A stretch of 64,000 bases of DNA from Escherichia coli. GTDB taxonomy: Bacteria; Pseudomonadota; Gammaproteobacteria; Enterobacterales; Enterobacteriaceae. Numbering within the stretch: the first letter of the stretch is position 1; each line of letters opens with the position of its first letter. The translations under genes were made by a program, and so were the position numbers. Under the pieces are notes generated by a model. It saw only the letters and a program-made list of their open reading frames with translations, was not told where the DNA came from and made no database searches. Shown here piece by piece: positions 57,416 through 62,927 of this stretch. Where the stretch lies: assembly GCF_030013205.1 (NCBI RefSeq), contig NZ_CP122648.1; one strand, written 5' to 3'.

Positions 57416-57586
57416 GTGACAACTGTCGGACAACGTGAACGCGCAACTCAACAGCGCGTAATCAGGTTTTTTATTGAGGAATTGGGCTATCGTTATCTAG
57501 GCGATTGGCACAAGCGTCCTAACAACCGTAATGTTGAGCCTGATTTGCTCAGTCATTGGTTGATTGACCGTGGTGTTGTGGACTGA
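57416..57586 (+). pseudogene. Small ORF with HsdR-N-like motif, 22 nt downstream of the giant gene; terminated at the IS3-family element boundary
   Basis: GTG start; VTTVGQRERATQQRVIRFFIEELGYRYLGDWHK... ; stop TGA coincides with first bases of the IS; possible continuation at 62297-62484. Confidence 0.35.
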
Positions 57587-57613
57587 CCCCACGCCCGTAG
57601 ACAAATTCTGTCC

Positions 57614-58061
57614 TCACGACGAGGCCTGTTCGAAGGCCTCCGGACTGACGCCGCCGAGGTGACTGTGGCGCCGGGCCCGGTTGTAGAACACTTCAATGTA
57701 ATCGAAGATATCCGCCCGGGCTAGATCCCGGGTTTTGTATATTCTCTTCCTGATGCGCTCTTTTTTCAGTGAACTGAAGAACGATTCGGCCACCGCATTA
57801 TCCCAGCAGTTGCCACGCCGGCTCATGCTCGGGACCAGGTTATTAGCCCGGCAGAAGTGCTGCCAGTCGTCACTGCCGTACTGGCTTCCCTGGTCTGAGT
57901 GCACGATGACCTCGCCGTCGGGTTTACGTCGCCAGACCGCCATCATCAGTGCATCCAGCGCCAGTTCGCGTGAGAGAGTGGGCTTCATCGACCAGCCCAC
58001 CACGTTACGGGCGAAGAGATCGATAACCACCGCCAGATACAGCCAGCCCTGCCAGGTGCGG
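57614..58061 (-). pseudogene. IS3-family transposase OrfB, C-terminal exon (downstream of intron)
   Basis: ...IRTWQGWLYLAVVIDLFARNVVGWSM...DDE integrase core...NRARRHSHLGGVSPEAFE. Confidence 0.7.
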
Positions 58062-60761: not shown

Positions 60762-61982
60762 TGTAGATTCAATTGGTCAACGCAACAGTTATGTGAAAAC
60801 ATGGGGTTGCGGAGTTTTTTTGAATGAGACGAACATTTACAGCAGAGGAAAAAGCCTCTGTTTTTGAACTATGGAAGAACGGAACAGGCTTCAGTGAAAT
60901 AGCGAATATCCTGGGTTCAAAACCCGGAACGATCTTCACTATGTTAAGGGATACTGGCGGCATAAAACCCCATGAGCGTAAGCGGGCTGTAGCTCACCTG
61001 ACACTGTCTGAGCGCGAGGAGATACGAGCTGGTTTGTCAGCCAAAATGAGCATTCGTGCGATAGCTACTGCGCTGAATCGCAGTCCTTCGACGATCTCAC
61101 GTGAAGTTCAGCGTAATCGGGGCAGACGCTATTACAAAGCTGTTGATGCTAATAACCGAGCCAACAGAATGGCGAAAAGGCCAAAACCGTGCTTACTGGA
61201 TCAAAATTTGCCATTGCGAAAGCTTGTTCTGGAAAAGCTGGAGATGAAATGGTCTCCAGAGCAAATATCAGGATGGTTAAGGCGAACAAAACCACGTCAA
61301 AAAACGCTGCGAATATCACCTGAGACAATTTATAAAACGCTGTACTTTCGTAGCCGTGAAGCGCTACACCACCTGAATATACAGCATCTGCGACGGTCGC
61401 ATAGCCTTCGCCATGGCAGGCGTCATACCCGCAAAGGCGAAAGAGGTACGATTAACATAGTGAACGGAACACCAATTCACGAACGCTCCCGAAATATCGA
61501 TAACAGACGCTCTCTGGGGCATTGGGAGGGCGATTTAGTCTCAGGTACAAAAAACTCTCATATAGCCACACTTGTAGACCGAAAATCACGTTATACGATC
61601 ATCCTTAGACTCAGGGGCAAAGATTCTGTCTCAGTAAATCAGGCTCTTACCGACAAATTCCTGAGTTTACCGTCAGAACTCAGAAAATCACTGACATGGG
61701 ACAGAGGAATGGAACTGGCCAGACATCTAGAATTTACTGTCAGCACCGGCGTTAAAGTTTACTTCTGCGATCCTCAGAGTCCTTGGCAGCGGGGAACAAA
61801 TGAGAACACAAATGGGCTAATTCGGCAGTACTTTCCTAAAAAGACATGTCTTGCCCAATATACTCAACATGAACTAGATCTGGTTGCTGCTCAGCTAAAC
61901 AACAGACCGAGAAAGACACTGAAGTTCAAAACACCGAAAGAGATAATTGAAAGGGGTGTTGCATTGACAGATTGAATCTACA
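60762..61982 (+). mobile_element. IS30 (1,221 bp) inserted into orfA of the IS3-family element
   Basis: Terminal inverted repeats TGTAGATTCAATTGGTCAACGCAACAG and ...ATTGAATCTACA; exact IS30 length. Confidence 0.85.
60824..61975 (+). CDS. insI: IS30 transposase
   Basis: 383 aa MRRTFTAEEKASVFELWKNGTGFSEIANILG... with DDE motif. Confidence 0.9.
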   Translation: MRRTFTAEEKASVFELWKNGTGFSEIANILGSKPGTIFTMLRDTGGIKPHERKRAVAHLTLSEREEIRAGLSAKMSIRAIATALNRSPSTISREVQRNRGRRYYKAVDANNRANRMAKRPKPCLLDQNLPLRKLVLEKLEMKWSPEQISGWLRRTKPRQKTLRISPETIYKTLYFRSREALHHLNIQHLRRSHSLRHGRRHTRKGERGTINIVNGTPIHERSRNIDNRRSLGHWEGDLVSGTKNSHIATLVDRKSRYTIILRLRGKDSVSVNQALTDKFLSLPSELRKSLTWDRGMELARHLEFTVSTGVKVYFCDPQSPWQRGTNENTNGLIRQYFPKKTCLAQYTQHELDLVAAQLNNRPRKTLKFKTPKEIIERGVALTD

Positions 61983-62239
61983 GCGGCTTTTTTTAATATG
62001 TCCCGTTCGTCGGTAACCCGTTTCAGCTCTTTCTGGAGACGGCGGATCTCGGCCTGAGCATCTGACTGTTCTTTATTAGTGGAAGAATCCGGACCGTACT
62101 TCTTTATCCAGGCATAAAGGCTGTGGGTGGTGATATCGAGACGTGTTGCAACGCTGGCAACAGAATAACCACGATCAACAACCTGTTTGACTGCTTCAGT
62201 TTTAAACTCTTCGGGATAACGCTTACCGCTCATGGGCAC
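61983..62239 (-). pseudogene. IS3-family transposase OrfA, interrupted near its 3' end by IS30
   Basis: MSGKRYPEEFKTEAVKQVVDRGYSVASVATRL (HTH)...DILKKAA then IS30; the remaining orfA codons ([13 protein letters not shown]) lie at 60723-60761. Confidence 0.7.
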
Positions 62240-62927
62240 CTCTCTTTAAGCCATCTTAAATGACTCTGAGGTGTCTGTTAAACCCGTGGCGATTCACGTA
62301 TCGCATTGGGCAAACTAAAGATGTGTATGTCTATTACCCAACTGTGAGAGATACTGAAATTACAACATTTGAAGAAACTCTGGATAACCTCCTACAACGC
62401 CGACGAGCATTGGCCAGAGATATGCTCTGCGCTACTCCCGATTTGAACTGTGCGGATTTTGAGACCATTTTGAAGGGAGCCTAACCGATATGAGCGGCAA
62501 TACTGCCAGTTGCCAAACCTGAAATAACACTTAGCTGTGATGATTCGCTATTACCTACCGATAGCTTCGGAAAACATAAATTAAAAATGCCCAGGGGAGT
62601 ACTATTATCGTTAGCATTACCCGAACGCCGTATTAACGGTTATTTATTGGTAAGTGCTACGTTCCATGGCAAGAGTTCATCAACACGGTTAGCCGACAGT
62701 ATATTGAGTATATGGCGCAGATATGCTTGCGGATTGATACCATTCAGACAGCAGGTCCCGCTCAGCCCGTACAGTAGAGCGCCGTTCACTACCGTAATCA
62801 CTGCCGAAAAACACATTGATTGCCCCTCAATAATCCTGCCGTCAACGTCAAAATTGCTGGTCGGGCTCGACTTATTTAATTGTGTAAACAGGGCCTCTCA
62901 GCGAAGGCCCTTATGCATCACCTGATG

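Follow-up and report, generated by a model that had tools for sequence, protein, structure and literature searches.

Introduction

The group II intron E.c.I4 retrohomes as an RNA–protein particle into a conserved site of about 40 bp in orfB of elements of the insertion sequence (IS) family IS3, in sense orientation and just after the codons for the first catalytic aspartate. Here we analyse a locus in which such an intron and a copy of IS30 are embedded in IS3-family sequence, near one end of a 64,000-nt stretch of Escherichia coli DNA (NZ_CP122648.1, GCF_030013205.1). This whole stretch is called the window, and coordinates are positions in it.

Copies of E.c.I4 are described from the transposases of IS629, IS911, ISEc16 and ISEc31 (PMC3522654), and full-length copies measure 2,271 bp according to the supplement of that study. 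The same supplement lists the ykfC sequence of K-12 as 'E.c.I4-tr1, prophage CP4-6, fragment of 1764 bp, class A' (Leclercq and Cordaux, 2012; PMC3522654). E.c.I4 belongs to class A, whose proteins are without an endonuclease domain (Toro and Martinez-Abarca, 2013; PMC3552965), and the intron database gives a copy an existing name at more than 95% identity to a named copy (quoted in PMC3552965). IS30 is known for targeting both hot spots and inverted repeats (PMC9333248). The two guests have also been met together, since the arrangement IS911'–IS30–IS911''–E.c.I4 in the K-12 prophage CP4-6 is already published. The idea that IS–intron tandems of more than 3 kb raise recombination is likewise not new and stands in the discussion of PMC3522654.

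We find that the locus in the window consists of E.c.I4 and IS30 in a dead patchwork of three IS3-family fragments, which was very probably made by recombination between copies of these guests. An earlier interpretation drawn from the letters of this DNA (the sequence-only reading) had instead described a single IS911-like element, split by both guests, that had cut a small open reading frame (ORF).

Results

Composition of the unit

The unit is made up of the following features, where IS-X and IS-Y are our working labels for unnamed lineages that RefSeq calls only 'IS3 family transposase'.

57579–58062, minus strand: IS-Y 3' fragment (segment C, 'exon 2'), 484 bp; C-terminal part of orfB with the second D and the E of the DDE triad
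58063–60332, minus strand: group II intron E.c.I4 (bacterial class A), 2,270 bp, full length, in the sense orientation of orfB
58063–58149, minus strand: intron domains V and VI, the catalytic core and the branch-point helix (Rfam RF00029)
58153–59661, minus strand: intron-encoded protein ltrA, 502 aa, reverse transcriptase (RT) plus maturase, intact (TIGR04416, Pfam)
60333–60761, minus strand: 5' part of an IS911/ISEc52-type orfB (segment B, 'exon 1'), 429 bp, ending at the first DDE aspartate (..WCGDVTY)
60762–61982, plus strand: IS30, complete, 1,221 bp, with both terminal repeats, opposite to the IS3 frame
60824–61975, plus strand: IS30 transposase, 383 aa, intact (NF033563, 276 bits)
61983–62296, minus strand: IS-X left end and orfA (segment A), with terminal repeat TGAATCGCCACGGG.. 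and an orfA product reading MSGKRYPEEFK..ILKKAA

The two insertions that the sequence-only reading had proposed are both borne out: a group II intron splits orfB, as RF00029 and TIGR04416 confirm, and a full 1,221-bp IS30 interrupts orfA close to the 3' end, 4 nt beyond the slippery site. Of the limits it gave, 57584 and 62296, the right one holds, while the TG..CA ends place the left terminus five bases further left, at 57579. Its three nested layers reduce to two levels of nesting, as the guests are neighbours within one frame, separated by 429 bp, and neither contains the other.

Three IS3-family lineages in the host

We removed both guests, cut the reconstructed host into three segments and compared each of them with other loci (designated L001 and so on). 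Segment C is 99.8% identical to the 3' 479 bp of the intact, uninterrupted IS-Y of strain E2 (L009), and 99.6% identical to the sequence in THO-010. IS-Y is also intact in LH13-b and ATCC 8739, and its TG..CA termini, TGGACTGACCCC…GGGGTCAGTCCA, are defined from four different contexts; its right terminal repeat ends in ..GGGGTCAGTCCA, and the left terminus at 57579 reads TGGACTGACCCC.. in the window. The remainder of IS-Y gives no blastn match to the window host and is 51–59% identical to it in a global alignment, with an identity of 0.51–0.59 over positions 1–700 and of 0.99–1.0 from position 801 to the end.

Segment B is 95–98% identical to K-12 IS911A'' and other copies, with a mosaic pattern of mismatches, and 200 bp of it are 100% identical to copies that RefSeq assigns to the 'ISEc52 family'; an intact ISEc52-family copy (L015) encodes OrfA and OrfB of IS911 type. 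Segment A is 99.4–99.7% identical to the same fragment in L002, L003 and L010. Its orfA reaches 4 nt past the slippery A7G, after which the ORF continues into IS30 (61895–62239), and neither this orfA, for which blastn gave no match, nor the terminal repeat TGAATCGCC… corresponds to IS911/ISEc52. In ATCC 8739 an IS-X orfA fragment faces an IS600 orfB across IS30. The label 'IS911-like' given by the sequence-only reading is therefore right for the 429-bp 5' piece of orfB, which matches K-12 IS911A and RefSeq copies of the 'ISEc52/IS911 family', and wrong for orfA and the 3' piece.

Removal of the guests joins the host pieces in frame (..WCGDVTY/IRTWQGW..; here and below a slash marks a junction), and the nucleotides that meet across 60333/58062 are ..GACCUAUA/UCCGCACC... 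The reconstructed OrfB scores 342.9 bits against NF033516 ('IS3 family transposase') and carries all three DDE residues, namely D in WCGDVTY, D in HSDQGSQY and E in NAVAESFF. With this domain and the −1-frame overlap of orfA and orfB at an A-AAA-AAG slippery site, the host pieces are of the IS3 family.

The IS911-type lineage gives way to IS-Y precisely where the intron is inserted, and this position suggests that intron copies have recombined. The contexts of this site are:

Window: GATGTGACCTATA/TCCGCACCTGG
Native IS911 type (L003, L010): ..CCTATA/TCTGGACGGG
Native IS-Y (L009, L013): ..ACTTATA/TCCGCACCTGG

Each parent is also known with the intron in place: plasmid pLR-48_3 carries IS-Y::E.c.I4, and strain B1-56 has IS911-like::E.c.I4. 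We further note that the outer ends of the unit, TGAATCGCCACGGGTTTAAC.. and TGGACTGACCCCACGCCCGTAG.., are not inverted repeats of each other. The end at 57579 pairs instead with the left repeat of IS-Y itself, TGGACTGACCCCACC.., at 26 of 31 positions, where the other end of the window unit has TGAATCGCCACGG.., and the bases outside the two ends (..GTGTTG/ and /CGTATC..) contain no target-site duplication. With three lineages, unmatched ends and no duplication, the unit is not one host IS. An uninterrupted copy of the reconstructed host was sought in 5,426 complete E. coli genomes, the set used in all our surveys, and no place covering at least 80% of it was found.

Some observations on IS-X and IS-Y at other loci may be recorded here. 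The 41-bp left end of IS-Y (TGGACTGACCCCACCCCGGTAGACGATCCTGCCCTATAGTT) is tandemly duplicated in several genomes (L009 1769–1850, L006 7570–7680, L013 6680–6722). IS-Y is inserted at TTTA in the left-end region of IS-X in ATCC 8739 (L011 3534–3545) and in LH13-b (L012 2530–2545), so the two are nested elsewhere too. A supposed deletion derivative in ATCC 8739, consisting of orfA plus the 3' end (hits H32–H36), proved to be an intact IS-Y beside an IS-X orfA fragment, which the rule for merging places had joined.

The intron

The intron begins with GUGUG at 60332–60328 and ends in ..CUCUAC at 58063, in agreement with the GUGYG and AY consensus. Domains V and VI match the full RF00029 model (positions 1–77) with 64.9 bits, against a gathering threshold of 40, and an E-value of 3.8e-11. 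The intron ORF (58153–59661/59676) scores 339.8 bits against TIGR04416 (cut-off 300), and its protein contains the Pfam domains RVT_1 (residues 91–337) and GIIM (residues 361–426) and no HNH domain, which agrees with the assignment of E.c.I4 to the endonuclease-less class A (PMC3552965). Only two residues of the protein, E304K and R417H, both private or rare, distinguish it from the widespread WP_001189111.1. Over its first 1,764 nt the intron shares 99.1% identity with K-12 ykfC, well above the 95% at which the E.c.I4 name applies. The 5' part of the ribozyme is probably intact, judged solely by its identity of about 99% to other full-length copies. E.c.I4 copies covering at least 80% of the query are present in 1,871 of the genomes surveyed. 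In other hosts the match around the intron shrinks to about 27 nt upstream and about 16 nt downstream (−27 to +16), which is the size of the homing site, and the position and orientation of the intron in the window are consistent with established retrohoming of E.c.I4.

A 40-codon ORF at 59700–59822 (minus strand) lies in intron domains I–III. RefSeq lists it as a hypothetical protein (WP_258055306.1 and WP_001406634.1); almost certainly, ribozyme sequence has been miscalled as a gene here.

IS30 and its insertion site

The terminal inverted repeats of IS30 begin TGTAGATTCAAT.., and the full repeats, TGTAGATTCAATTGGTCAACGCAACA and TGTAGATTCAATCTGTCAATGCAACA, are 26 bp long and imperfect. The element has 99.6% identity to K-12 IS30A, from which its transposase departs at a single residue, and is inserted 4 nt 3' of the slippery site A-AAA-AAG (A7G), at the end of orfA. 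In the orientation of the IS3 frame it is flanked by the dinucleotides GC and AC, so that the canonical 2-bp duplication is imperfect. The junctions at this and other loci, with the left and right inverted repeats of IS30 as IRL and IRR, are:

K-12 (IS3 orientation): GGCT[AC]/IRL…IRR/[AC]CGCG
THO-010: the K-12 site and duplication, with IS30 inverted
B1-56: AAAGCC[AC]/…/[AC]CGCG
Window: AAAGCC[GC]/…/[AC]CGCG
ATCC 8739: AAAGCCGC/…/[AC]AGCGTAT (IS600)

Thus the homologous AC that follows the frameshift site has served as an IS30 target in elements of at least two kinds, IS911-type and IS600-type, and in both orientations, in keeping with the targeting of hot spots known for IS30 (PMC9333248). 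Several IS3-family members seem to have such an IS30 hot spot in the frameshift region of orfA.

Several of these loci deserve a remark of their own. In K-12 (L005 2501–3721) and THO-010 (L008 9462–10682), IS30 occupies the same nucleotide with AC on both sides and in opposite orientations, which can reflect either independent hits on a hot spot or inversion in situ. In EC17CM12 (L002) the GCCGC flank of the window adjoins IRL rather than IRR. In ATCC 8739 (L011 3817–5037), IS30 lies at the homologous AC past an IS600-type frameshift site, with the IS-X orfA fragment on its other side. A second IS911/ISEc52-type copy in K-12 MG1655, at about 4.49 Mb and separate from the copy in CP4-6, is apparently also interrupted by IS30.

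Flanking genes and genomic setting

The sequences on either side of the unit are pseudogene stubs:

57416–57586, plus strand: 55-codon hsdR-like stub immediately downstream of hhe, truncated at 57578/57579 by the end of IS-Y
62297–62484, plus strand: 3' end of zorD (type I Zorya), last 61 codons plus stop, identified by BLASTP and DNA identity

The final codons and the stop of the left stub come from IS-Y. Its match to Pfam HSDR_N is weak (i-E 0.0038, model positions 2–40 of 198). All 22 of its relatives in the database are only 33–96 aa long and diverge after ..HWLIDRGV, and the protein search for a full-length parent returned these stubs of 33–96 aa only. The version in Klebsiella P0004 terminates in GVVD*, identical to the ending in the window, so the junction with IS-Y is old and shared across genera. 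In E8, the position of the hsdR stub is followed by no more than about 70 nt from the start of IS-Y, oriented as here, and then by a truncated yecA; in E2, IS-Y has yecA on one side and a truncated integrase on the other. IS-Y has therefore long resided at the edge of the hhe island.

On the right, the called ORF (62260–62484) begins within the end of IS-X, and the match to ZorD runs from residue 14 on. BLASTP aligns it with residues 1020–1080 of the 1,080-aa ZorD of O157:H7 F7508 at 59 of 61 identical positions (97%, E 5e-41), a reference that belongs to an intact type I Zorya operon, and the DNA is 88–91% identical to annotated zorD. The genes further downstream (an IS66 remnant, inovirus Gp2, DUF3987 and HTH) are the same neighbours as in the intact Zorya island.

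The sequence-only reading held that the composite had cut a small HsdR-N-like ORF. This is not the case: the right flank is the end of zorD, the left ORF is unlike ZorD, and a search for the empty site with the concatenated flanks found the hsdR stub and the zorD 3' end adjacent in no E. coli genome. We also considered the left ORF as the N-terminus of ZorD and rejected this, there being no similarity between them. By these sequence comparisons, the composite lies at a join of two unrelated loci rather than inside a single split ORF.

The complete genomes that match the window are porcine E. coli, enterotoxigenic (ETEC) and O139:H1 strains such as EC556, P15-25 and ETEC4067. In EC556 the region belongs to a large island adjoining tRNA-Ser and ghrA, which contains a CbtA/CbeA toxin–antitoxin pair, an Ag43 remnant, a type I restriction–modification system and ISKpn26, and further a partial hsdM, an HNH/DUF262 pseudogene and the anti-phage gene hhe; then come the composite and the remnants of a second island. 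In the window, hhe (51646–57393, plus strand) is intact and encodes the 1,915-aa DUF4011 anti-phage protein Hhe directly upstream of the composite. The hhe module lies at the yecA/tRNA-Leu locus in E8 and THO-010 and inside the tRNA-Ser/ghrA island in the window, and has therefore moved. Upstream of hhe and next to ISKpn26, a partial hsdM pseudogene is fused to the HNH/DUF262-type pseudogene (about 49160–51470; L001 865–3172), which gives this island a further rearrangement joint.

The remnant of a Zorya-type integrative island on the other side (62297–64000, continued in L001 14000–23301) holds the zorD 3' end, an IS66 fragment, YagK/YfjJ, a degraded IS1, inovirus Gp2-type genes, a TOTE primase fragment, IS2, an HTH gene and DUF3987. 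This stretch lacks zorA, zorB, zorC and codons 1–1,019 of zorD.

Distribution

The junction of IS30 with IS911 orfB in the orientation of the window is found in 788 of the 5,426 genomes, and IS30, exon 1 and the intron together in 187. The whole unit with its left (hhe-side) flank, at 80% or more of the query, occurs in 27, of which 17 (H1–H17) match across both flanks. Over 57300–62600, fifteen of these complete genomes match at full length with 100.0% identity and the other two with 99.8%; in fourteen the match is a single collinear piece with the best bit score, and one carries an extra insertion. EC556, EC571 and EC581 have a single place that matches any part of this 5.3-kb query, the intron and IS30 being single-copy in them. 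As these three genomes, which match the window at 100%, lack a second copy of any part, the unit would have been inherited ready-made with the island and not put together within them.

Discussion

Origin of the patchwork

Comparison with other loci defines the guests and their integrity, their insertion sites, the threefold origin of the host and the unrelatedness of the flanks. The history that very probably links these features would run as follows. E.c.I4 would have retrohomed into IS-Y and into IS911-type elements, and IS30 would have inserted at the hot spot in orfA. Since the guests, at 2.3 kb and 1.2 kb, exceed the host pieces in length and occur in many copies, exchange of flanking halves between guest copies is the likely outcome, and RecA-type recombination may have carried it out. 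Such an exchange would have fused the hhe island, with the hsdR stub and the end of IS-Y, to a Zorya-island remnant that keeps the last 6% of zorD.

To a more general proposition we give even chances: the guests would serve as portable homology, such that E.c.I4 and IS30 copies residing in different IS3-family elements recombine into hybrid 'hosts', here fusing the hhe and Zorya islands with the loss of zorA, zorB, zorC and 94% of zorD. Were it true, intron–IS tandems would be a measurable driver of the remodelling of defence islands in E. coli.

A number of points count against this history or limit it. For the intron, no Rfam model of the domain I–IV families matched even at a permissive E-value, the matches being to domain V/VI models only. 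A complementarity search with and without G·U pairs gave no convincing pairing between the exon-binding sites EBS1 and EBS2 and the intron-binding sites (IBS) in the exon; the weak candidates are ACGUCAC at 275–281 with exon −15 to −9, and UGUGGG at 263–268 with −6 to −1, including two G·U pairs. The minimum-free-energy fold of intron nt 1–656 (z = −2.3) pinpointed no EBS1. For IS30, B1-56 combines the same IS-X orfA with a perfect AC/AC, so the GC/AC of the window could be a single A-to-G substitution, and the evidence for recombination at the IS30 joint is the weaker. Uninterrupted elements with IS-X orfA and IS911 orfB exist as well (L003 and many hits covering 1–743), and IS-X/IS911 may be a natural hybrid that was simply hit by IS30. 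Finally, we infer the order and the mechanism of the rearrangements from comparison of present-day sequences.

In an alternative history, recombination took place at the intron joint only: a natural hybrid of IS-X orfA and IS911 orfB received an ordinary IS30 insertion, whose AC later became GC, and then underwent one intron–intron exchange with an IS-Y::E.c.I4 at the hhe island. The uninterrupted hybrids that this history starts from are common (97% over 1–743), the AC/AC duplication of B1-56 is what it predicts, and THO-010 shares the series hhe–IS-Y exon 2–intron–exon 1–IS30 with the window. Yet THO-010 agrees with the window from hhe only to the far end of IS30, and beyond it has a different orfA (true IS911) and different flanks, so that an exchange at or near IS30 clearly occurred in this family of structures. 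In ATCC 8739, moreover, IS-X orfA faces IS600 orfB across IS30 with GC on one side and the AC native to IS600 on the other, and the L003-type elements lack 7 nt exactly at the IS30 joint and look derived rather than ancestral. We therefore consider a history confined to the intron joint unlikely, if still a serious competitor. The GC/AC flanks themselves had been a candidate proof of IS30–IS30 recombination; with the AC/AC of B1-56 in view this proof is weakened, and we keep exchange between IS30 copies as one of two possibilities, the other being one substitution.

The L003-type elements also merit description in their own right. In strain E203449 (L003 3001–4250) and in the 1–743 hits, 7 nt are missing precisely at the IS30 position (..AAAGCCGC/TCTTGAT..), which puts orfA in frame with orfB with no frameshift required. 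These uninterrupted elements may be products of IS30 loss, not ancestors.

Simple nesting, as the sequence-only reading had it, would mean that one IS911-like element entered a small ORF and was then hit independently by the intron in orfB and by IS30 in orfA, with no recombination at all. Both guests do sit at their usual sites, their removal restores an in-frame IS3-family transposase, and B1-56 shows IS30 with clean AC/AC in the same type of orfA. Such an element should have matching ends and one target, whereas here the outer ends are not inverted repeats and lack a 3–4-bp duplication, and the hsdR stub and the zorD 3' end are unrelated. The 3' part of orfB is from IS-Y, whose 5' 700 bp are unrelated to the host in DNA sequence; the two lineages meet precisely at the intron, and the uninterrupted form is missing from all genomes surveyed. 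Simple nesting is thus very improbable. An artefact of the source assembly, with repeats collapsed or mis-joined, has a negligible chance of being right: repeated IS and intron copies are a classic source of mis-assembly, but the unit recurs with both flanks over the full 5.3 kb in 15 independent complete genomes at 100.0% and in two at 99.8%, these come from different laboratories and countries, and three of them contain no second copy of any component that could have confused the assembly. Nor are chance matches an issue, the parts being near-identical copies of catalogued elements.

Functional state and annotation

The IS3 frame cannot make OrfAB, we infer, because IS30 separates orfA and the slippery site from orfB; with OrfAB blocked and the ends unmatched, the frame is dead. 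That the host is probably immobile had been proposed before, and mobility is indeed very unlikely, but the responsible features are IS30 and the mismatched ends and not the intron, which in its sense orientation could in principle be spliced out of orfB. IS30 and the intron both appear structurally intact and may still be active.

An annotation of the unit should accordingly list E.c.I4, IS30 and three remnants of IS3-family elements in place of a single interrupted IS911. At either edge the small ORF is a pseudogene stub, the 5' end of hsdR on the left and the 3' end of zorD on the right, and the strain therefore has an intact Hhe defence gene and only a vestige of Zorya. The locus makes a textbook example of how multi-copy guests, one an intron homing to transposase genes and the other an IS for which those genes hold a hot spot, make recombination patchworks of IS elements. 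Beyond annotation its importance is little, as the arrangement is an ordinary one and K-12 has the same kind of pile-up.

Comparison with known systems

The intron closely resembles E.c.I4 and S.f.I1 in its nearly equal length (2,270 bp here, 2,271 bp there), in an RT and maturase without endonuclease, and in its sense insertion at a fixed position of an IS3-family transposase, and it is 98.5–99.7% identical to E.c.I4 copies of other genomes. There is no substantive difference, except that the host IS-Y is not among IS629, IS911, ISEc16 and ISEc31 named in PMC3522654. IS30 likewise is typical in its full length, its two repeats, its intact transposase and a site that is repeatedly used in orfA of IS911-type and IS600-type elements; it differs in its flanking dinucleotides, GC versus AC, which leave no intact 2-bp duplication. 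The host shares with IS911/ISEc52 the middle piece (60333–60761), the last ~20 nt of the orfA region and the A-AAA-AAG frameshift site. It differs from them in its left end and orfA, which are not IS911, and in its 3' 484 bp and right end, which are IS-Y, and neither terminal repeat of IS911 (TGAAGTGGT..) is present.

All parts are thus already known, and the locus contains neither a new kind of element nor a new combination. Its closest counterpart is the CP4-6 locus of K-12, insN–insI1(IS30A)–insO–ykfC (IS911A' / IS30A / IS911A'' / E.c.I4-tr1), where the order is orfA'–IS30–orfB'–ykfC (the intron)–IS5. There too IS30 has entered the 3' end of orfA at the identical nucleotide, adjoining ..ACCGCGCTCTTGATGTC; the IS911-type 5' piece of orfB is present at 96.7% identity, and the intron occupies the same orfB site with 99.1% identity over 1,764 nt. 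The K-12 IS30 is oppositely oriented, however, and adjoins an orfA of true IS911 type with perfect AC/AC, whereas the orfA of the window is that of IS-X. In K-12 the intron is cut at nt 1,764 by IS5 and exon 2 is missing; in the window it is full length, encodes an intact protein and is followed by an exon 2 from IS-Y.

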